Below are positions 2,040 through 32,440 of a stretch of 37,557 nt of DNA, piece after piece. A program made the position numbers and the translations under genes. The stretch's first letter is position 1. Every line of letters starts with the position of its first letter. Under the pieces are notes generated by a model. It ran no database searches. It had not been told where the DNA came from and was given only the letters and a program-made list of their open reading frames with translations. This DNA comes from a virus (taxonomy: Duplodnaviria; Heunggongvirae; Uroviricota; Caudoviricetes), in IMG/VR virus record IMGVR_UViG_2588253749_000008; one strand, written 5' to 3'.

Positions 2040-2933
2040 CTATTTCCAGTTACAAGCAGCTTGAAGTGGTTTTAGCGCGTTTGACAGGCCGTTTAAATTG
2101 AAAGTTGCACTTACAGGGCTCTCATTATAAGGAGTTATTTTTGTATACATTTTGTTTGAGTTGGCTAGTTTTCGGATGAAATCAATGTCATTACCTTTAT
2201 AAAAAACAGCCTTTGTATCTGTAGATACTAGCCAGTTTCGCTCAACTGCTTTCTGTTTATCAAGACGATAAAGCATGCTGGTTTGTTCAAGGCCTAAATA
2301 TACATCCCAACTAAGAAATACTTCGGTTTTCTTTTCTCGGCAAGCTATAAACAGAGTGGGAGTAACCGCTTCTCCAAATGGAGTTCTGATATAATCATCA
2401 CTTTCTAACGATAAAATTACATTTTTCGAATCATCAATTGGCGATGTAGTAATGGATGTGTGCCATTTTCCTACATCTGTGGCTTTCTCTAATTTTGATT
2501 CAGCTTGAACAGCTTTATCCTGTGGGAATAGTTTATCGTAGCAGTTTAGTCTGGCTTCTTTATCATTTTCTGCTCGGCATTTAGATATCTCAGAAAGATT
2601 TGGTTGCTGAGCCTCTGTTGTTACTGGCTTTTCCGTTTTAGATTTTGAGTTTACAGATGGAGTAAATGTTGGAGAAAAAAAACGATCATAACAAGATAAA
2701 CGTCTGTCATCATCTTTCTCATCAGGGCATTGATCTCTGCTTTCGAATTTTTCAGCAACTTTCGTTCGAGTCGGTTGTATTGACTTATCGTAACAAGAAA
2801 GTCTGTCTTTATTATTTTCTATTGCTCGGCACTGGAGTACTGCATTGAAGTTATTATGTTCAGTTGCTGCGTGAACAGGCAGTACACTAATTGATATAAA
2901 TGATGCACCTATAGAAAAAATTATATTTTTCAT
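2040..2933 (-). CDS. Secreted/periplasmic protein with three Cys-x8-9-RL(S/N)CYD(K/R) repeats and a ~150-aa C-terminal domain of unknown function
   Basis: 297-aa ORF; N-terminal signal-peptide-like segment MKNIIFSIGASFISISVLPVHA; three spaced two-Cys repeats; visibly GC-poor. Confidence 0.6.
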   Translation of the reverse strand: MKNIIFSIGASFISISVLPVHAATEHNNFNAVLQCRAIENNKDRLSCYDKSIQPTRTKVAEKFESRDQCPDEKDDDRRLSCYDRFFSPTFTPSVNSKSKTEKPVTTEAQQPNLSEISKCRAENDKEARLNCYDKLFPQDKAVQAESKLEKATDVGKWHTSITTSPIDDSKNVILSLESDDYIRTPFGEAVTPTLFIACREKKTEVFLSWDVYLGLEQTSMLYRLDKQKAVERNWLVSTDTKAVFYKGNDIDFIRKLANSNKMYTKITPYNESPVSATFNLNGLSNALKPLQAACNWK

Positions 2934-2937
2934 TTTG

Positions 2938-3270
2938 TTATCCTTTTGGTTTAGTAAGAAATACTAAAATTCCGATAATGATATCGCCAATAACCCATAA
3001 ACTTCCAATGGTAATTAAACCTAAGCCTGTACCAATAACTGCACCGGCTTTTTCGGCATCGGATGTAGCATTATTTATTATTTCACTAGTGCCTCCCAGT
3101 CCAACTAAAAGCGTATAGATCATAAAAATATTAAATAATATAAATATCCACTTAATGAGCTTTCCAAAAAATGAACGCTTAAGTTTTTTTATTTGTTTAC
3201 CGCAAGCAGGGCAATACAATGCTGAATCGCTCACCTCTTTCTGGCATTCAGGACATTTGATTAATGCCAT
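2938..3270 (-). CDS. Zinc-ribbon membrane protein (N-terminal CPxC...CPxC, two predicted TM helices)
   Basis: 110-aa ORF MALIKCPECQK...CPACGKQ followed by two hydrophobic stretches; GGAGG RBS; stop lies 5 nt before the start of 2040-2933 (operon). Confidence 0.6.
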   Translation of the reverse strand: MALIKCPECQKEVSDSALYCPACGKQIKKLKRSFFGKLIKWIFILFNIFMIYTLLVGLGGTSEIINNATSDAEKAGAVIGTGLGLITIGSLWVIGDIIIGILVFLTKPKG

Positions 3271-3531: not shown

Positions 3532-3672
3532 TTACTGCTTACACTGTAAGAACGCCGCAAACTCCGCTCCCCAGAAACTCATCCGTATTTCGCACAGCGA
3601 ACCGTGCAACATCCAGATGATGAGGATTACCGTCACGCAGAACGTGATGGCTGTAAGCGATTTTTGCGACAT
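3532..3672 (-). CDS. Hok/Gef-family type I toxin (small membrane peptide)
   Basis: 46-aa ORF not in the supplied track: MSQKSLTAITFCVTVILIIWMLHGSLCEIRMSFWGAEFAAFLQCKQ; shares the SLCEIR and E-x-AAF motifs of Hok/HokA-type toxins; stable 3' stem-loop GACGGGGGAttacTCCCCCGTC at 3501-3522. Confidence 0.65.
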   Translation of the reverse strand: MSQKSLTAITFCVTVILIIWMLHGSLCEIRMSFWGAEFAAFLQCKQ

Positions 3673-24346: not shown

Positions 24347-26098
24347 ATGATTCAGGACGCTTTTGTGCGCCAGCGTGCGCGGCAACTTTACTGGCAGGGT
24401 TATCCGCCCGCAGAAATATCACGTCTGATGGGAATAAACCCGAACACGATTTATGCGTGGAAAAAACGCGACCAGTGGGATGAAACGCCACCCGTGCAGC
24501 GTGTCACGCAGTCCATCGATGCGCGCCTCATCCAGCTCACTGAAAAACAGAATAAAACAGGTGGTGACTTCAAGGAAATAGACCTGCTGACCCGGCAGCT
24601 TAAAAAACTGCATGATGGCCAGCCGGATGCGACGGCCACAGGAAAGAAAGGCCGGGCGAAAAAGCTTAAAAATCATTTCACGCCGGAACAGATTGCCGCA
24701 CTGCGGGAAAAAATCATCAGCAGGCTGGAGTGGCATCAGCGGGGCTGGTTTGACTCCCTGACCCTTTGCAGGGAAGCCGGGATACGTAACAGGATGATCC
24801 TGAAATCCCGACAGATTGGGGCGACCTGGTATTTTGCACAGGAAGCACTGCTGATGGCGCTGCGTGACGATGTGGTGCAACCTTATCAGCGTAACCAGAT
24901 TTTTTTGTCTGCGTCGCGTCGTCAGGCGTTCCAGTTTAAAAGCATTATTCAGAAGGCCGCGGCTGAAGTTGATGTGGAGCTGAAAGGGGGCGATAAAATC
25001 ATCCTCTCCAACGGCGCAGAGCTGCATTTTCTCGGCACTTCTGCTGCGTCGGCACAGTCCTATACGGGCAATTTTTATTTTGATGAATTCTTCTGGGTCA
25101 GTCGCTTTGCTGAACTGCGCAAGGTGGCTGGCGCTATGGCAACCCTCAGCGGACTGCGGCGCACCTACTTCTCCACGCCATCCACCGAAACGCACGAGGC
25201 ATACGCCTACTGGAACGGCGACCGCTGGAACGAGAAAAAGGCCACGCATAAACGCCAGCGTTTTTCTGTGGACTGGAAAACGCTGCATAACGGGCTTATC
25301 TGCCCTGACCGGACGTGGCGGCAAATTGTCACGCTGGAAGATGTGGTTAATCACGGCTGGAAACACACCGATATTGATGAAATTCGTGATGAAAACACCG
25401 AAGACGAGTTCCTCAATCTCTATATGTGTGAGTTTGTCCGCGAAGGGGAATCGGCATTTAACCTGAATATCCTGATTGGCTGTGGTGTTGACGGATACGA
25501 CGACTGGAAAGACTGGAAACCTTTTGCTCCCCGCCCGATGGGGAATCGCCCGGTATGGATTGGGTATGACGCAAACGGCAGCAGTGGCAACGGCGACAGC
25601 GGCGCGGTGTCCGTGGTGGTTCCTCCGGCTGTTCCTGGTGGCCGTTTTCGAACGGTGGAGACGCGACGCGTTCAGGGGCTGGAGTTTGAAGAACAGGCCA
25701 GAGTCATTGAAGAGTTCACGTGTCGCTACAACGTGGAACACATCGGCATTGATGTGACGGGCGGGAACGGGGAGGCTGTTTATCAGATAGTGAAACGGTT
25801 TTTCCCTGCCGCTATTCCGTACACCTTCACGCTGTCATCAAAACGGTCGCTGGTACTGAAAATGCTGCAAATAATGCGTGCCGGGCGGTGGGAATACGAT
25901 CGCGCCGAACGCGAGCTGGTCGCGGCCTTTAACGCCGTGCGTAAGGTGAAAACACCTGGCGGCTTTATCACTTACGAAACGGACCGCGCGAGGGGGATCA
26001 GCCACGGCGACCTTGCGTGGGCAACCATGCTTGCTGTCATTAACGAACCAATTGGCGGCGAAGGAGAAAACGAGCGTTTCACGGTTATGGAGTTCTGA
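24347..26098 (+). CDS. P: Terminase ATPase (large) subunit gpP
   Basis: 583 aa, divergent from O as in P2. Confidence 0.9.
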   Translation: MIQDAFVRQRARQLYWQGYPPAEISRLMGINPNTIYAWKKRDQWDETPPVQRVTQSIDARLIQLTEKQNKTGGDFKEIDLLTRQLKKLHDGQPDATATGKKGRAKKLKNHFTPEQIAALREKIISRLEWHQRGWFDSLTLCREAGIRNRMILKSRQIGATWYFAQEALLMALRDDVVQPYQRNQIFLSASRRQAFQFKSIIQKAAAEVDVELKGGDKIILSNGAELHFLGTSAASAQSYTGNFYFDEFFWVSRFAELRKVAGAMATLSGLRRTYFSTPSTETHEAYAYWNGDRWNEKKATHKRQRFSVDWKTLHNGLICPDRTWRQIVTLEDVVNHGWKHTDIDEIRDENTEDEFLNLYMCEFVREGESAFNLNILIGCGVDGYDDWKDWKPFAPRPMGNRPVWIGYDANGSSGNGDSGAVSVVVPPAVPGGRFRTVETRRVQGLEFEEQARVIEEFTCRYNVEHIGIDVTGGNGEAVYQIVKRFFPAAIPYTFTLSSKRSLVLKMLQIMRAGRWEYDRAERELVAAFNAVRKVKTPGGFITYETDRARGISHGDLAWATMLAVINEPIGGEGENERFTVMEF

Positions 26099-27144
26099 TG
26101 AGCAGAAAAAATAAAAAAGTGCGCATGAGTTCACGCATTGATCTCGCTGATGCGCTCAGGAAAGAATCATCGCTCAGTGCATTCACATTTGATGGTCCTT
26201 ATCGCCTGACCGGGCATGACCTGCTGGACAATATGTACTGTGCTGATAACGGGCGGTGGTATGAAACCCCGGTGGACTGGTACGGTCTGGCAAGAGCCGC
26301 CCGGCAAACGTCCTGGCATCAGTCTGCGCTTTACTTTAAGCGCAATGTATTGCTCGGTTGCTACATCCCGCACCCGCTGCTTTCCCGGCAGGATTTCTCG
26401 GCGCTGGCGCTGGACTGGTTTGTGTTCGGTAACGCATTCCTTGAGCTTCGGAGCAATATGCTCGGCGAACCACTTAAATTACGGCACGCACTGGCGAAAT
26501 ACATGCGACGCGGAAGCGATCTTGAATCATGGTGGTATGTGCAGGATGGCAAGGACGCGTTTCAGTTTCGCCCTGGCAAAGTGTGCCACCTGATGAATCC
26601 GGACATTAACCAGGAAATTTACGGCATGCCGGAATATCTTGGCGCATTACTCTCGGCCAGCCTGTCTCATTCGGCGGACATGTTCAGAAAACTGTATTAC
26701 GACAATGGATCCCACGCCGGGTGCATCATCTACATCGGTGCAGCGCAGGTAAACCGCGAAAGCATGGACTCCCTGAAAGAAACGTTACAGGGTGCGCGTG
26801 GTGGTGGTGCGTTTAAAAACGTGCTCATCCATGCGCCCAACGGGGGCAAAGAGGGGGTGCAAATTTTGCCGTTCCAGCAGATCACCGCAAAGGATGAGTT
26901 CATGAATGTTAAGGCGGCATCCCGTGATGATGTGCTGGCTGCGCACCGCGTTCCGCCGCAACTGATGGGGGCGATGCCGGGCGAAAAAAGTGCGTTTGGT
27001 GATGTGGAGAAGGCCGCGCGGGTTTACGCAATTAACGAGCTGATGCCTGTCATGGAGGCCATGAAGCACATCAATGACTGGCTTGGCGAAGAGGTGATCC
27101 GCTTTAACCCTTACGCACTGTTAGACACCCAGCCCACATCCTGA
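26098..27144 (+). CDS. Q: Portal protein gpQ
   Basis: 348 aa immediately after P; last late gene before the presumptive cos region. Confidence 0.9.
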   Translation: MSRKNKKVRMSSRIDLADALRKESSLSAFTFDGPYRLTGHDLLDNMYCADNGRWYETPVDWYGLARAARQTSWHQSALYFKRNVLLGCYIPHPLLSRQDFSALALDWFVFGNAFLELRSNMLGEPLKLRHALAKYMRRGSDLESWWYVQDGKDAFQFRPGKVCHLMNPDINQEIYGMPEYLGALLSASLSHSADMFRKLYYDNGSHAGCIIYIGAAQVNRESMDSLKETLQGARGGGAFKNVLIHAPNGGKEGVQILPFQQITAKDEFMNVKAASRDDVLAAHRVPPQLMGAMPGEKSAFGDVEKAARVYAINELMPVMEAMKHINDWLGEEVIRFNPYALLDTQPTS

Positions 27145-27171
27145 CGCGCTTCGCTTGTCTGCTGCTTCGCC

Positions 27172-27197
27172 GGGGCATAAAAAATTTATGCCCCGAC
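27172..27197 (+). terminator. Terminator after Q (GGGGCATAAAAAATTTATGCCCC)
   Basis: Perfect hairpin read directly from sequence. Confidence 0.5.
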
Positions 27198-27590
27198 TCT
27201 CCAGCTCCTGTATCAGTCAGATAATTTCACGACGCTTTCCTGCTGATTGCCATTATCGACAGTCAGACTCTTACGCAATCCCACCGCGTTGACTGCATGT
27301 TCTCGCCGTCTCAGTGCGATTTTGACGGCCTTACCTTTCACCCCATCAAATCAAAAGCCCTCACGTCTTTTTCACGCTCAGCGTGAGAAATACAGCCATT
27401 CTGTTGTATCTCTGCGACATCGTTCAGGGAATGCTATTTACCCCCTGAAACGCGGGCTGTTCCCCCGTCACCTGCGCGCAGAAAAAACGCGTTTTTTTGT
27501 GCACGTACGGATCCTTGACGGATCCAGCCACCACGCGGGCCGGAAGTACAAAAAGTCGTTCAAAAAAATTGTGCAAACTTGTGCACTATC

Positions 27591-27621
27591 GTGCAAACAA
27601 AAAAAGCGCCTTATCGGCGCT
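27591..27621 (-). terminator. Terminator for the 27674-27901 gene (minus strand)
   Basis: AAGCGCCGATAAGGCGCTT followed by TTTTTTTG on the minus strand. Confidence 0.45.
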
Positions 27622-27673
27622 TCAAAAGTATCAATTGTTGCTGTGTATTAATCGCCAACCACGAACATATGCT

Positions 27674-27901
27674 TCATAGGCATCTCTGTGCCTTACAGTT
27701 TCCAGCCTGGCTAAACGGAATGTTAGCTAAAACTAAATCATTCTGAGCCATAGCGCGTCCTTCAAGCGCATCTTTTATGCCTAGCTCAAAAGCACAGGCA
27801 GCGCATTTGTGCCGACCTTCTTGTCCTTGATATTCAGGGAGAGACAGAAATGTTGGATTATAACGATGAGGGTTCTTGCAAATACCTGTTTTAGCCCGCA
27901 C
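27674..27901 (-). CDS. Small Cys-containing hypothetical protein, 75 aa, GTG start
   Basis: GAGG RBS 8 nt upstream; five Cys including CxxC; own terminator; sits in the variable region between cos/Q and A. Confidence 0.35.
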   Translation of the reverse strand: MRAKTGICKNPHRYNPTFLSLPEYQGQEGRHKCAACAFELGIKDALEGRAMAQNDLVLANIPFSQAGNCKAQRCL

Positions 27902-27924
27902 TTTATTTACCTCATAGGAAAAAT

Positions 27925-28011
27925 ATGCGTGCCTTTACAGAGGTGCGTGTAAGCAATAAAATATACGACGCACATTTTGATTTACTTCGGAAGGCACGCA
28001 TATCAGGTTAA
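27925..28011 (+). CDS. Possible 28-codon small ORF / leader (MRAFTEVRVSNKIYDAHFDLLRKARISG)
   Basis: AGGAAA RBS 5 nt upstream; start codon lies inside an 11-bp inverted repeat (ATGCGTGCCTT ... AAGGCACGCAT); followed by a strong terminator. Could instead be a non-coding RNA. Confidence 0.2.
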   Translation: MRAFTEVRVSNKIYDAHFDLLRKARISG

Positions 28012-28030
28012 GTGAGTCCGACCGAGTTTT

Positions 28031-28064
28031 ACGCCCCAATAGTTGCTGCTATTGGGGCGTTTTG
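28031..28064 (+). terminator. Strong rho-independent terminator (ACGCCCCAATAG ttgctg CTATTGGGGCGT TTTT)
   Basis: Perfect 12-bp stem plus T-run. Confidence 0.65.
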
Positions 28065-28265
28065 CATGGACAATGCCGCGCAATTATCTTGTCGCTCACA
28101 ATGCGAACGATCTTACAAAAAGGCACATTACTGTCAAGATAATTGATCGTTTTAATCGATAGATAATAGACAATCTATTTGTTTAACAGATCGATTATTG
28201 AAGTAAGTGTGCCAAGTGGAATGATACTGTCTCTATAAACGTGAGCATTTTTCGCGCAGATGCTT

Positions 28266-28577
28266 TTACTCAGGAAATAACGCCCGGATATTCCCAGCCA
28301 TCTGGCTGGTTATCTTAGCCACTGGTGCAGACTGTGCTTCAAACTTTTTTGAGCTGATTTGTGTCACAGGTAACATCTCATCATCAGCCCATGCGGCCAG
28401 TCGGTAAGCCTCTGCCGGATTCGTCTTCAGAAGTGCCAGCCCGGCCAGAAAAGCCACGCGTTGGCCGCTTTTGCGGGCTTCTGGTGTAAGGCTGTCCAGC
28501 CAGGCGCATGCTTCTCCTTCGTTCTTGACGGCAGCTGGCTTCAGATAGAAACTTATCCGTCTGGTTGGTGTTGTCAT
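28266..28577 (-). CDS. parR: ParR-like centromere-binding adaptor
   Basis: Start reassigned to MTTPTRR; RISFYLKPAAVKNEGEACAWLDSLTPEARKSGQRVAFLAGLALL parallels R1 ParR as recalled; AGGAG RBS inside the parM 3' end. Confidence 0.65.
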   Translation of the reverse strand: MTTPTRRISFYLKPAAVKNEGEACAWLDSLTPEARKSGQRVAFLAGLALLKTNPAEAYRLAAWADDEMLPVTQISSKKFEAQSAPVAKITSQMAGNIRALFPE

Positions 28578-28581
28578 TGGT

Positions 28582-29541
28582 TTACTCCTTGTCCATTGCG
28601 TACAGCCCATTAACCAGAGCAAACTGTGGCACCCCGTCCGCGATGAAAGTCGCATTAACTCCGCAGGCTTCGCGGATAGCGGGTGCCACAATCTCCGCCC
28701 CGCCACCGACAACCATCACCCGCCCGTAACCCGAAAAACCCGCCAGCGCGCGGATCACGCGTTGTTTCAGTGTTTCTTCCTTTTCACGAATAACCGCCAT
28801 CAGGCTGTCGTAATGCGCGTCATTGTGGATGTGCTGGCGCAGCCAGGCTTCATCATGGCGATGTTCGATAATGGTATTGGCGATGTGGTGACTGGTACGC
28901 ATACCGTTAGTGGCCATCACCGACAGTACGGCATCGGCCATCAGGGAAACGCCTACGTGTGGATCGCAAAACACCTGGCTGATACCTGCCAGTTGTCCCT
29001 GAACCTTTGCCACATCCAGCGTGGTTCCGCCTAAATCCACAATCAGCAGGGATTCAAACGGACTCATGTCAGCCAGTGCTTTAAAGCCAGCCGGAATGGA
29101 TTCAGGCATAACCCGTACGTTACGGATAGTGAATGCTTCGCCGTTCTGGTACTCCACCGGGCGCATGACGTTCGCTTTTTTGCGGTTGATGTTGGCCATG
29201 TCCGGCTGTGCGTTTGTGTCGAAATATTCGCTCAGTGGCAGGGTGACAACCACATCCACTTCCTGTGGTGTGATGCCTGATTTGACCAGCGCGTGATGAA
29301 TGGCAATGACATTCACATCGCTGTACTGGTATTGCGTGTCGGTCGTCTGGACAAAGCGATCGCTGACCGGATCAAAACCATAGCGCACGCCATCAAGCAT
29401 GTAGTTCGCGGGCTGCGTGCCACCGAACGGCGCAGACCATTCCGACTTGAAGCTGTTCGGGCTGATGGCGTTGCGGCGTTCGCCGTTCTCAGTCCATGCC
29501 AGCTTGATGTTGGTGGAGCCGTCATCGATACAAATTTTCAT
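28582..29541 (-). CDS. parM: ParM/StbA-like actin-family segregation ATPase
   Basis: 319 aa; near-identical blocks to plasmid R1 ParM as recalled (IDDGSTNIKL.W, ISPNSFK, YSDVNV.A.HHAL, MPESIPAG, L.IDLGGTTLD). Confidence 0.85.
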   Translation of the reverse strand: MKICIDDGSTNIKLAWTENGERRNAISPNSFKSEWSAPFGGTQPANYMLDGVRYGFDPVSDRFVQTTDTQYQYSDVNVIAIHHALVKSGITPQEVDVVVTLPLSEYFDTNAQPDMANINRKKANVMRPVEYQNGEAFTIRNVRVMPESIPAGFKALADMSPFESLLIVDLGGTTLDVAKVQGQLAGISQVFCDPHVGVSLMADAVLSVMATNGMRTSHHIANTIIEHRHDEAWLRQHIHNDAHYDSLMAVIREKEETLKQRVIRALAGFSGYGRVMVVGGGAEIVAPAIREACGVNATFIADGVPQFALVNGLYAMDKE

Positions 29542-29573
29542 GTCGCTTTTCCTTATGTTGATTAATTAATCGC

Positions 29574-29608
29574 TTACGGGATTCTGAAATCCCGTTTTTG
29601 CCTGTTTT
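29574..29608. repeat. 35-bp direct repeat, copy 1 (TTACGGGATTCTGAAATCCCG...), candidate parC/operator
   Basis: Contains internal palindrome GGGATT-N4-AATCCC; lies between the A stop and parM start. Confidence 0.5.
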
Positions 29609-29617
29609 ATGCGCGCT

Positions 29618-32440
29618 TCATATATCGCGGCGCGTTTTTTGCTCATTTACGGGATTTGTGAATCCCGTTTCTGTCTGTTTTTTGTTTCCACTGGTCAGGC
29701 CACCCCGCAGCAGGTCTGCTTTGCGGCGGGCGCGTTCAGTGGTTTCACTGATTCTCTGTGCGTGCTCTGCGTCGCGGATGGCGCGCAGCATGTCAGAAAG
29801 CACGGTAACGGGTGTTTTCATGGTGTTCTGGTCCTGCTGAAGTGTGGATGCCAGGCGTGCGGCGGCTTCGGGGTCTGATGCCCCCAGCTGTTCCAGATAG
29901 CTGGCGACCGGGTTATGGCGGATCTCCGTGCTGCTTACGCCGTGGTTACGGCTCAGGCGCTGCCAGAGCTGCGTGATCCGGCTGTCCGGTCGGGTATCCG
30001 GTTTGCGTACAATTTCAAATCCCTGCGGTGCAATGATGCTGCCGTCGACGTACAGACTGCCGCCCCGTAACAGGTGCTGCATCTGCTGTTCACCGATATG
30101 CAGGCCGAGAGATTCAGCAGACTCCCGCCATTCTTTAGCGAGTAACTCGTGGTTATCAGGCAAAGGCCGTGGCTGTTTGCGGCTCTGTGTCCAGTTCTGC
30201 ATTTCATCACTGCTGTTTTTTGCCTGTTTGTCACGCAGCGAACGCATCAGCGCCCGGCGTTCGTGCCGTTTCAGTGAGCGCATCCATTCATTCACGTCAA
30301 CGCCGTCAGGAAGCTGCGGCCACGGTGCTGGCCGTTCTTCCGGCTGTTCTGTCCCGTTGTTGTCCGTTTCCTGTACACGGGGACAGTTATTGCCACGAGT
30401 CCAAGGGGCGGCAGGGCCGCCCTGAAGGTCAAAACCATTTTCGCGGGCGCTGTCTTCCGCTTCCGGTTTACGTCTTACCAGCTTCCAGTTATCCGGATGT
30501 GTGCACACACGGGAAGACTCCCCGATGAGCGGTGACCAGATCCCGTAAATCTGTACGCTCTGTTCGCCGTAATCGTTCAGCTCATCTGCGAGGTCGTAGG
30601 CGGTGCGAATCAGGTAGTCTTTGCGTGGAACAAGTACGCCGCCCTGTTTTTCAATGTAGGAGGCAAAACACCCGGCATCAGCGGCAGCGAGCACTGCATC
30701 CATTGCGTCATCCTTCAGTCGTTGCGGGCCTTCCGGGTTGCGTGCCATCTGGCTGGCAAGGCGGCGCAGTTCACGCCACACCTGACGGGAGGGGATGCCA
30801 AAGAACTGGAACTGGCGGACCCGGTGAAGGCGCGCCCAGCCGATGGCGCGCTCCACGCTCTCGGCCATTGATTTTCCGGTTTCGTGGTCAACGCGTGGCT
30901 TGCCCGTTTTCGGGTCGATACCATCCACGGCGCGGCTGTCCAGGTTCTTTCCGATGTAGGTGGCGATGTAGCTGGTTGGCGTGCCTTTTGAGCCGTCGAC
31001 GTACTCCGCCTTAAAACGCGGAGTTATGTCATCGCCCAGCTCGTGGCGGTCTTCCTGAATGGCAATATCGCAGACGTGGGACACGATGGTTTCAATCTCG
31101 TCCGGATGTGCAAAGACCATCATATGCCAGTGCACAGTGCCGTCATGGTGAGGCTCCACCGTGCGGATGCCATACCAGCGAAGACCGTCGCGGTTCAGTT
31201 TTTTGCGGACCGCCGCAAAAAACGTGTTAACCAGGTAATCGCTGGAGTCGCGCATGGTGGCCCCGTTCCATTTGGGATTCGGATGACCGTTCTCTGTTGT
31301 GGCGTGGTATTTTGACGGGCAGGTGACAGTCAGAAACACCGCTCTGTCGCCACGGGCTTCGGCCAGAAGTTCCAGTCCCTTCATGGTGGCCATCATTTCT
31401 GCCTTACGGTGAACCGGGTTACTTACTCCCGCGTAATACACCGTCTCGAGATCAATCGTGAACCCGTCTTCATTTTCCAGCATGAAACTTTTCAGGAAAT
31501 CGCGTGTTTTCTCGCGCTGTGCGCGAAACTCGCTTAACGCGTCCTGGCTCAGATAGGGTGATGTTTTTCTGGAAACCAGACAGGCGGCGCGGAGTTGTTC
31601 TTCTCTCCACTCGCAACGTAACAGCCACAGTTTGCGTTTCCACCATTCCGCACAGGTCAGGCGAAGGATTGCGCCCGGCAGCAGCTCCGTGTCCGGTTCG
31701 TTCCTCCGGTCTTTGTCTGTTGTCAGTGCGTCATAATGTGGAGGCATGGCGTGCAGGTGTAACGCCATGCGGGCCAGCATCTGATACGCCTTCAGCGTTA
31801 CATCCATGGTCAGTTCGCCATCAGTAGCGCCAAAGCCATCGCAGAGTTTTTCGAAGGTGCTGCTGAACATCGCCGCCGTCATGGTGGCCAGCGTCTGTAT
31901 CTGGTGTTTGTTGAGCTGCGGCAGGTAAAGCAAATCGTCCAGGCGTTCGCGTCCGGCAAGGGAGCGATAACCCGGTGTCAGCCAGCGGTGATCGGTGCGG
32001 TCCAGACGTTCGAATATTTTGCGCAGGGTTCCGCGCGCGTAGCGTTCCGCCTGCCAGCTCTTTTTGCCTTTCTGACGATCGGCTTCCTGCTTCTTGCGCA
32101 GGAAGGAGAGGTGGCGAATAAGCGGATCGCGCAGATAGGACGGCAGCAGGCGCAGCGAGGCCATGGCTTCATCCACCGCGCCGCGTGCCTGTTTTCTGGC
32201 GTCTCCTGCCAGTGTGATGGTTTTGTCCTGTTTTTCCTGTGCGTCCAGGCTTTTATTAATCAGGTTGCCCAGCGGCGTGGCGGAGAACGCCGCATCAGCC
32301 ATTTCCTGGCGGCGCTCGTTCTCTACCCGGTAGGCATCCAGCCAGGAGGAAAGCGCGGATTCAGGAGCGGAGATCCCCGTTCCTTCACGCCCCACTGCGT
32401 GGCGCGGTTGTTGCCAGTCCCTGATGTACTCTGCCGTCAT
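29618..32440 (-). CDS. A: Replication initiation endonuclease gpA (rolling-circle HUH nickase)
   Basis: 940-aa ORF containing the HxH motif (VHWHMMVF) and conserved gpA blocks; true start may be downstream of 32440. Confidence 0.85.
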   Translation of the reverse strand: MTAEYIRDWQQPRHAVGREGTGISAPESALSSWLDAYRVENERRQEMADAAFSATPLGNLINKSLDAQEKQDKTITLAGDARKQARGAVDEAMASLRLLPSYLRDPLIRHLSFLRKKQEADRQKGKKSWQAERYARGTLRKIFERLDRTDHRWLTPGYRSLAGRERLDDLLYLPQLNKHQIQTLATMTAAMFSSTFEKLCDGFGATDGELTMDVTLKAYQMLARMALHLHAMPPHYDALTTDKDRRNEPDTELLPGAILRLTCAEWWKRKLWLLRCEWREEQLRAACLVSRKTSPYLSQDALSEFRAQREKTRDFLKSFMLENEDGFTIDLETVYYAGVSNPVHRKAEMMATMKGLELLAEARGDRAVFLTVTCPSKYHATTENGHPNPKWNGATMRDSSDYLVNTFFAAVRKKLNRDGLRWYGIRTVEPHHDGTVHWHMMVFAHPDEIETIVSHVCDIAIQEDRHELGDDITPRFKAEYVDGSKGTPTSYIATYIGKNLDSRAVDGIDPKTGKPRVDHETGKSMAESVERAIGWARLHRVRQFQFFGIPSRQVWRELRRLASQMARNPEGPQRLKDDAMDAVLAAADAGCFASYIEKQGGVLVPRKDYLIRTAYDLADELNDYGEQSVQIYGIWSPLIGESSRVCTHPDNWKLVRRKPEAEDSARENGFDLQGGPAAPWTRGNNCPRVQETDNNGTEQPEERPAPWPQLPDGVDVNEWMRSLKRHERRALMRSLRDKQAKNSSDEMQNWTQSRKQPRPLPDNHELLAKEWRESAESLGLHIGEQQMQHLLRGGSLYVDGSIIAPQGFEIVRKPDTRPDSRITQLWQRLSRNHGVSSTEIRHNPVASYLEQLGASDPEAAARLASTLQQDQNTMKTPVTVLSDMLRAIRDAEHAQRISETTERARRKADLLRGGLTSGNKKQTETGFTNPVNEQKTRRDI
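29647..29681. repeat. 35-bp direct repeat, copy 2 (29 of 35 identical), inside the 3' end of gene A
   Basis: Same palindrome-containing unit; overlaps the last ~20 codons of A. Confidence 0.5.

Follow-up and report, generated by a model that had tools for sequence, protein, structure and literature searches.

The stretch of viral DNA considered here (IMG/VR record IMGVR_UViG_2588253749_000008, 37,557 nucleotides, hereafter the window) comes from a P2-type tailed phage and carries, directly behind its replication gene gpA, a parM gene and a parR gene (together, parMR) related to those of the actin-based partition systems of plasmids such as R1. This cassette is a core module of the P88-like phage lineage (genus Xuanwuvirus) rather than a relic or a moron subject to turnover, and we give a probability of about one half to the reading that it is a functional type II (ParM/ParR) DNA-segregation module of the P88-like backbone, which would act on extrachromosomal phage circles. 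A more far-reaching version is tentative, with a probability of about one in three: that of a core actin segregation machine serving the extrachromosomal phase of a widespread, rolling-circle P2-family lineage, with a two-site centromere straddling the gpA stop codon, and perhaps coupled to gpA (as R1 ParM and ParR are to TraI) or, together with hok, supporting a facultative plasmid state. The two genes themselves are real, well conserved and already catalogued, being annotated in RefSeq and in the PHROGs.

The product of parM (28582..29541, minus strand), a partition ATPase of 319 residues with an actin fold, aligns end to end with both Pfam ParM domains (StbA_N, 275 bits; ParM C-terminal domain, 231 bits), falls in PHROG 691 (‘partition protein’) and is matched by the crystal structures of R1 ParM (PDB 1mwk) at E=1e-92. 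Its motifs DDGSTNIKL, VMPESIPAG, DLGGTTLD and GGGAE are identical to those of R1 ParM, an identity that covers the phosphate-1, catalytic Glu, phosphate-2 and adenosine motifs, and 88 of the 89 sampled copies are full length. Judged by its sequence, the protein belongs with the actin-fold ATPases of the ParM/StbA type, its nucleotide-binding and catalytic motifs being intact. A preliminary description of this DNA had spoken of a close ParM homologue, to which a lack of ATPase residues would have been an objection; all the motifs being intact, the membership of the family is genuine, but the closeness is not, given an identity of 46% (148/319) to R1 ParM and of at most 52% to the plasmid ParMs listed.

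The adaptor is encoded directly downstream by parR (28266..28577, minus strand; 103 residues), and what had been called ParR-like did prove to be a ParR of the StbB family, both by Pfam (Plasmid_stab_B, PF10784, the family of NR1 StbB and R1 ParR, 83 bits) and by a profile match to the ParR of pB171; it also falls in PHROG 2515 (‘partition protein’). The program-made open reading frame for it (28266-28712) begins at a TTG and overlaps parM. The real start is not that TTG at 28712 but the ATG at 28577, located 4 nt past the parM stop codon and preceded by a Shine-Dalgarno sequence, AAGGAG, within the last parM codons; position 28266, from which the preliminary description counted the cassette, corresponds to the parR stop codon. 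A search of solved structures with the single ParR sequence gave no match, and the profile built from the phage ParR alleles matches pB171 ParR (PDB 2JD3, ‘StbB protein’) weakly (E=1.2e-3, residues 9-75 to 11-76). Among 14 phage alleles, the first ~65 residues and the last 8 are conserved, whereas residues 66-95 form a hypervariable linker, after which the C-terminal NIxxLFPE is invariant. In alignments with plasmid ParRs, the N-terminal strand-helix region is kept (RRISFYLKP...ER..QRAAFLAGLAL) and the phage tail resembles the plasmid tails NIKNLFPDDE and NAENMFGDD, with a shorter linker in the phage proteins. ParR retains, therefore, the predicted N-terminal DNA-binding domain and the putative C-terminal ParM-binding tail motif of a partition adaptor. 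Full-length copies make up 85 of the 89 sampled, and one allele appears frameshifted. The alleles are mosaic (~98, 83 and 55% identity), with their first 18 codons and their last 8 in common, and many prophages of the O157:H7 type match the window only upstream of parR codon 18 (codons 19-103 being 28266-28523), which points to recombination inside the gene.

As to the genomic context, the cassette of the window is 100% identical to the chromosome of E. coli 503025 (NZ_CP025892.1), in which a complete P2-type prophage is inserted between pdxB and flk. Its RefSeq annotation comprises an integrase, a C-like repressor, Cox, the early operon, the virion genes and ogr, in agreement with the earlier assignment of the window to an integrated prophage of the P2 family. 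The nearest named phages are P88, 520873, 503458, PhiR44_2, Chuche and the Citrobacter phage phiSM, all of them Peduoviridae of the genus Xuanwuvirus and all annotated with a ‘plasmid segregation protein ParM’ and a ‘partition protein’; P88 and phiSM are members of the lineage that form plaques and integrate (PMC6456863). Three consecutive genes occupy the minus strand, namely gpA, followed by a gap of 76 bp, parM and parR, and the order portal (26098-27144, plus strand), variable region, parR, parM and gpA places the cassette in the slot that harbours orf91/tin/old in P2. The rolling-circle replication endonuclease gpA (29618..32440, minus strand; 940 residues; Pfam Phage_GPA, 432 bits) is 31% identical to P2 gpA over residues 77-744, while its last ~195 residues, in the 3' part of the gene (29618-30400), have no counterpart there. 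Its last 260 residues match only 14 of 50,697 phage records, all of them Xuanwuvirus and all with parMR, and a Pfam search recognised no domain in this C-terminal tail. RefSeq calls the gene a pseudogene (‘internal stop’), although the reading frame is uninterrupted in the window.

The cassette is widespread in E. coli. It was found in 1303 of 5426 complete genomes (about a quarter), at 1451 places, of which 1449 (99.9%) are chromosomal and 2 are on plasmid records. The 3' part of this type of gpA is present in 1371 of the genomes, at 1534 places, so that around 95% of the prophages with that gpA type carry parMR. Comparison of related phages shows the homology ending precisely with the parR stop codon (query position 1117). 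The GC content of parMR is 53-55%, that of the window as a whole 52% and that of the neighbouring hotspot 45%. The ratio of nonsynonymous to synonymous substitution rates (dN/dS) among prophage copies is 0.02-0.10 for parM and 0.19-0.35 for parR. Between the window and the most divergent lineage found, that of Hafnia, parM has a synonymous divergence (dS) of 0.61 and a dN/dS of 0.037, and the portal, terminase and capsid genes have a dS of 0.36-0.40 and a dN/dS of 0.03-0.06. Both parM and parR are hence under purifying selection, even though the lineage is almost always integrated. The proposed equivalence with the old/tin slot of P2 thus holds for the position, between gpA and the cos/portal end, but does not extend to hotspot cargo, given the ~95% linkage to gpA, the phage-like GC content and a dN/dS like that of virion genes. 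Similarly, it had been considered that the cassette might be universal in P2-like phages and have a known replication role there: it is near-universal in the genus, but absent from P2 itself, and no published role was found.

Outside E. coli, a search with one genome per species returned only E. albertii, Salmonella and a ‘Vagococcus’ contig, and the ParR homologues are nearly all from Escherichia, with a few from Cronobacter and Hafnia. The ParM on the contig of Vagococcus sp. WN89Y is 98% identical to that of the window, and the contig most likely represents contamination with enterobacterial DNA. One relative is informative about loss: in E. coli CUVET19-1704 (locus L003, 3395-4088), the same gpA 3' end, including the distal of the two repeats described below, is followed by a frameshifted ead/Ea22-like gene and there is no parMR. 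The breakpoint falls at the gpA stop codon, and the cassette can therefore be lost.

Where does the cassette come from? Searches with tblastn against 72,556 plasmids gave a bimodal picture for ParM, with 6 plasmid records at 95% identity or more and the others among the 5,000 records listed below 60%, the best true plasmid reaching 52%. The high-identity records are P88-like phage DNA, either embedded in ‘plasmid’ records of very large size or submitted as a circle. ParR matched only 7 plasmid records, all of them carrying P88-like phage DNA, and had no detectable homologue on true plasmids in that set. A recent plasmid origin of the cassette was considered and rejected in view of the lack of a true-plasmid match for ParR and of the gap, for ParM, between at least 95% and at most 52% among the matches listed. 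As far as sequence comparison can tell, the phage ParMR forms a compact branch of its own, and an old one, within the family. The closest plasmid loci are those of IncI-gamma/K1, IncK2/Z and a Pantoea plasmid, in which parM is preceded by 340-410 bp of repeat-rich DNA and ParR has 120-140 residues.

The candidate for the cis-acting site lies at the junction of gpA and parM. Two direct repeats bearing palindromes had been noticed upstream of parM, one of them inside the 3' end of gpA, and a repeat search confirmed both, with a unit of 38 nt instead of the 35 first given; they are 82% identical and lie 73 bp apart, start to start. The proximal copy (29574..29611), with the palindrome ACGGGATT-CTGA-AATCCCGT, is in the 76-bp spacer between gpA and parM, and the distal one (29647..29684), with ACGGGATT-TGTG-AATCCCGT, is within the last gpA codons, where it codes for residues KQTETGFTNPVN, 11 residues short of the C-terminus. 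The copies thus flank the gpA stop codon (29618-29620), and each of them is a candidate ParR site and a possible half of a parC. The two copies of the palindrome ACGGGATT-N4-AATCCCGT agree in their 8-base arms and disagree at every one of the four spacer bases. A search of the 37.5-kb window for the core GGGATT-N4-AATCCC gave just these 2 sites, even when one mismatch was allowed (0.08 expected; none of 100 shuffles reached 2).

Both repeats, with their exact 73-bp spacing, are retained in the E. albertii, Salmonella and Hafnia lineages as in E. coli, and only 4 of the 38 positions of the proximal repeat differ between the window and Hafnia, while parM has reached a dS of 0.61. In Hafnia, moreover, the gpA stop codon sits in the spacer of the distal palindrome, which means that the right arm and the segment between the repeats are non-coding there and conserved nonetheless. 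In a scan of IMG/VR for CGGGATT-N4-AATCCCGTAA, a parM start was found at most 260 nt downstream in 76 of 76 assessable loci among the matches listed, and every one of those loci is a gpA-parM junction. Outside parM and parR, the gpA-parM spacer and the adjacent gpA 3' end are the sole conserved adjoining sequence. The layout is one of two blocks around ~35 bp, in DNA rich in A-tracts. By eye only, the T-rich tails of the repeats resemble the iterons of IncI-type parC. Altogether, the odds that the two 38-nt repeats are the centromere (a candidate parC) are roughly even.

Two further elements were read in the same junction. A GC-rich inverted repeat, CGCGC-N13-GCGCG (29612..29634), appeared in the alignment between the two repeats, with the gpA stop codon inside it. 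Because TTTTTTG follows it on the plus strand, it may form another terminator-like hairpin, the third of the junction; in phage 520873 it shows one double compensatory change, which is not significant. The other element, apparent in the sequence, is a perfect 12-bp palindrome, GATTAATTAATC (29560..29571), placed 18 nt ahead of the parM start codon. The E. coli, E. albertii and Salmonella copies retain it, and the Hafnia copy is degenerate.

How might such a module work in a phage that is almost always integrated? The pair is probably the distal end of an early replication operon, cox...B...A-parM-parR, because it is on the same strand as gpA and follows it after a 76-bp gap in which neither a promoter-like site nor a coding-strand terminator-like site was predicted. 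P2-type phages keep the early operon repressed in the lysogenic state and express it while their genome is free and circular. Under this arrangement the lysogen would keep parMR repressed, and the proteins would be produced only from an extrachromosomal circle, after infection or excision; such repression would account for the fact that a quarter of the E. coli genomes tolerate a chromosomal copy. ParR would then bind both 38-bp repeats around the gpA stop codon, a minimal centromere in two parts whose arrangement recalls the two iteron blocks of R1 parC, and ParM filaments would push or position the circular products of replication. P2-type replication yields circular monomers, which are also the packaging substrate and which would provide the ParMR system with a substrate. 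The outcome may be a better replication, packaging or inheritance of the phage DNA before lysis or integration, by analogy with AlpAC in the case of CGP3. Stabilization of an episomal replicative form, which was one of the explanations initially put forward for the cassette, or the positioning of such a form would be the best remaining reading.

Several observations weigh against this reading. Only two repeat units are present, Tandem Repeats Finder detected no iteron array near parMR, and no promoter was found in the candidate parC, unlike R1 parC with its autoregulated one. Both repeats also score as intrinsic terminators on the plus strand (8-bp stem, 4-nt loop and T run), antisense to parM and gpA, and the distal one persists in the relative devoid of parMR. 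The distal arm is mismatched in ~44% of 88 loci, and the proximal arm in ~26%. Across 89 copies, ParR alleles occur in mixed combinations with the palindrome variants, and the two do not co-vary; this shuffling would be expected if the alleles share their DNA-reading strand, and all of them do have the same first 18 residues, so it provides no positive evidence. On the protein side, the AlphaFold monomer of ParR, modelled from the 14-sequence alignment, is of low confidence, with a predicted local distance difference test score (pLDDT) of 54 and no N-terminal strand; too poor for a comparison of folds, it does not confirm the ribbon-helix-helix fold. The ~5% of prophages with this gpA type that lack the cassette indicate that it is dispensable for the persistence of the prophage. 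Finally, ParR binding, filament formation, expression timing and phenotype are all inferences.

Some of these points favour a different interpretation of the repeats, according to which they and the GC-rich dyad would be terminators or RNA elements, either stopping plus-strand transcription that comes from the convergent hotspot before it enters gpA or shaping the gpA-parM mRNA, with ParR acting elsewhere or without a dedicated site. Apart from the plus-strand terminator calls for both hairpins and the distal hairpin kept by the parMR-less relative, this interpretation can draw on the P2 cargo genes old and tin, which are transcribed convergently to gpA, on the plus-strand cargo gene in the phiSM hotspot and on the folding of the repeat region, far better than that of shuffles on either strand (z about -5.3). 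We nevertheless consider it unlikely: the protection of the early operon would call for a site that separates parR from the hotspot, and the repeats separate gpA from parM instead; no RNA covariation above that of shuffles was found for the three hairpins (10 sequences; 136 of 500 shuffles reach the observed score); the arm variants disrupt the pairing on one or the other strand, inconsistently; a simple hairpin needs neither an invariant 73-bp spacing nor conservation over 38 nt, beyond the stem; and the motif was found solely at gpA-parM junctions among the IMG/VR matches listed. Instead of segregation, or beside it, ParMR might stimulate or localize the HUH-type nickase gpA during rolling-circle replication, the lineage-specific gpA tail being the contact. 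The analogy is that of R1, in which ParM and ParR interact with the TraI relaxase and raise its nicking activity (PMC4949242). The position of parMR directly downstream of gpA, a candidate ParR site inside the gpA 3' end and a tail without match in P2 gpA, confined to phage records that bear parMR, all fit such a coupling. But this co-occurrence lies within one clade and is equally explained by shared ancestry, the tail has no recognised domain and CUVET19-1704 has the same tail without parMR, and we regard the coupling as quite improbable.

A facultative plasmid or carrier state, in which a low-copy circular episome (for instance, when attB is unavailable) would be inherited by means of parMR and a Hok-family toxin, is improbable as well, in spite of some suggestive records. 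A circular record of 34,461 bp submitted as the plasmid pZ1323PEC0009-2 (NZ_CP148288.1) is a complete phage of the lineage with an integrase (the same protein as in the window), parMR and hok, and two of the 1451 cassette places are on plasmid records. In the window, a 46-residue Hok/Gef reading frame (3532-3672, minus strand) lies next to ogr (Pfam HOK_GEF, 30 bits over a cut-off of 22), which would be a second stability function of plasmid type; the stability loci of R1 are, precisely, its ParMRC system and hok/sok. Hok genes, however, are common in chromosomes and prophages too, and the other 1449 places are chromosomal. A sister isolate from the same project as pZ1323PEC0009-2 has the identical gpA sequence integrated, for which reason the circle may be excised or induced phage DNA. 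The RefSeq annotation contains no theta-type replicon (no systematic search for one was made), but only the rolling-circle system of gpA, a protein that P2-type phages make together with the lytic early operon. Hence, with integrase and the Cox/C switch in place and one circular ‘plasmid’ record of 34.5 kb found, the phage-plasmid lifestyle offered in the preliminary description receives little support.

Its other suggestion, centromere-based incompatibility against ParMRC plasmids, fares worse. The cassette could be conceived more broadly as a weapon or shield, directed through its centromere against such plasmids or related superinfecting phages, or as an anti-phage defence located in the P2 hotspot. 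The slot does correspond to the old/tin defence hotspot of P2 (P2 hotspots are described in PMC13586616), and incompatibility exerted by R1 parC is attributed to Dam and Gerdes (1994) where that work is cited in PMC2241845. The cassette lacks, nonetheless, the turnover of cargo, as its linkage to gpA of ~95% and its core-gene-like dN/dS illustrate, and the motif was found at gpA-parM junctions and at no other place among the viral-contig matches listed from IMG/VR. Cross-reaction with plasmid centromeres is unlikely, since tblastn gave no ParR homologue in true plasmids and plasmid ParMs reach at most 52% among the matches listed. None of ParM, ParR and the neighbouring 75-residue reading frame matched a PADLOC model, and the defence-system reading was rejected. 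Taken together, a role of this kind is very improbable. Least probable of all is the idea, which the selection data contradict, that the cassette is decaying, left over from an earlier recombination with a plasmid and now devoid of function. The ~5% of gpA-type prophages without the cassette would agree with it, and the repeats might be vestiges of a duplicated gpA 3' end, their same-frame translations giving similar peptides; but the dN/dS of parM is 0.02-0.10 with 88 of 89 copies intact, the divergence of parM between E. coli and Hafnia has kept pace with that of the virion genes, there is no close plasmid donor, and the window copies of the repeat have the same palindrome arms with four different bases between them.

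The remainder of the region deserves a brief description. Between parR and the portal gene lies a variable hotspot of ~1.1 kb (27150-28265; GC content 45%), whose content differs among P88, phiSM and the prophage of the window. It contains the 75-residue reading frame mentioned above (27674-27901; PHROG 3941, labelled as of unknown function), a strong promoter-like site on the minus strand (28137-28110), a dyad-rich ATCGAT region (~28150-28215), a perfect 12-bp hairpin (28031-28060) and, in non-coding DNA beyond the portal, a short tandem repeat of ~3.3 copies of AAAATTGTGC (27550-27597), possibly near cos. The cos site itself could not be placed, as the P2 cos sequence had no match in the window at up to 5 mismatches. 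At the ogr end, beside attR, RefSeq annotates a TagO-like protein associated with type VI secretion systems (T6SS) and a zinc-ribbon protein (window 2040-3270, minus strand), the genes of which look like cargo; phiSM carries an open reading frame of the T6SS VasI family (PMC6456863).

What would be gained if ParMR does organize the phage circles during replication? About a quarter of the complete E. coli genomes, including those of O157:H7 and other pathogenic lineages, bear a chromosomal ParM/ParR pair, and selection on parM is as strong as on capsid genes, yet we found no paper that states its role: a literature search, which included 2026 surveys of P2-like phages, gave no study of ParMR in P2-like phages, and the phiSM paper tabulates the ParR gene merely as a possible ‘fitness’ factor (PMC6456863). 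A role in organizing phage circles would extend AlpAC of CGP3, the sole prophage actin system that has been studied, to the best-known family of enterobacterial temperate phages, and would make a very compact natural centromere available for study. Function is directly testable, because there are plaque-forming members that infect E. coli K-12, such as P88 and phiSM. Should the repeats be only terminators, and the genes of little effect, this would be an ordinary and already annotated feature. The interest rests mainly, then, on the prevalence of the pair and on its unusual, compact candidate cis site.

Among known systems, the obvious reference is the ParMRC system of R1/NR1 (parA/stb; also present in IncF, IncI and IncK plasmids), with which the phage cassette shares an StbA-type ParM with its ATPase motifs, an StbB-type ParR and the order of cis site (here a candidate), parM and parR. 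The parC of R1 consists of ten 11-bp iterons, in two blocks of five flanking 39 bp, in curved DNA and with an autoregulated promoter (PMC2241845). The phage candidate is likewise bipartite, with two blocks around a centre of ~35 bp, but has two 38-bp palindromic repeats instead of ten 11-bp iterons and no promoter-like site inside; its ParR has 103 residues against 117-140 in plasmids, and its spacer 76 bp against the ~340-410 bp of non-coding DNA upstream of plasmid parM. Besides, it is located in an integrating phage, with 99.9% of the copies in chromosomes, and not on a low-copy extrachromosomal replicon. Of the solved structures, that of pB171 ParR (2JD3) gives the phage ParR profile its best match, which covers the N-terminal ribbon-helix-helix domain, although the similarity is weak (E=1.2e-3) and disappears in the single-sequence search.

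Other temperate phages possess plasmid-type partition loci, as in the phage-plasmids P1 (ParAB), N15 (SopAB) and the SSU5 group. These, however, are extrachromosomal, have plasmid replicons and use mostly ParA-type systems, whereas the P88-like phages encode an integrase, use a fixed attB and are found in chromosomes. The tin/old cargo of P2 coincides with parMR in its map position between gpA and the cos/portal end, but it is variable, often of foreign composition and related to defence, in contrast to the near-constant parMR, with its phage-like composition and no homology to defence genes. The known system that comes closest in its circumstances is AlpAC/alpS, from the prophage CGP3 of Corynebacterium glutamicum, where the actin-like AlpC and its co-transcribed DNA-binding adaptor AlpA are induced early, the adaptor binds sites upstream of the operon and circular phage DNA is linked to the filaments (PMC4446434), AlpAC being required for an efficient replication of the excised phage circle (PMC4446434, PMC5539076). 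Both cases involve an integrated prophage with genes for an actin-like protein and an adaptor and with sites (candidate ones here) just upstream, the anatomy alone being comparable in ours. They differ in the phylum of the host, in the type of phage and in the gene order, adaptor then actin in CGP3 and ParM then ParR in the P88-like phages, and the proteins of the latter are bona fide members of the StbA and StbB families.

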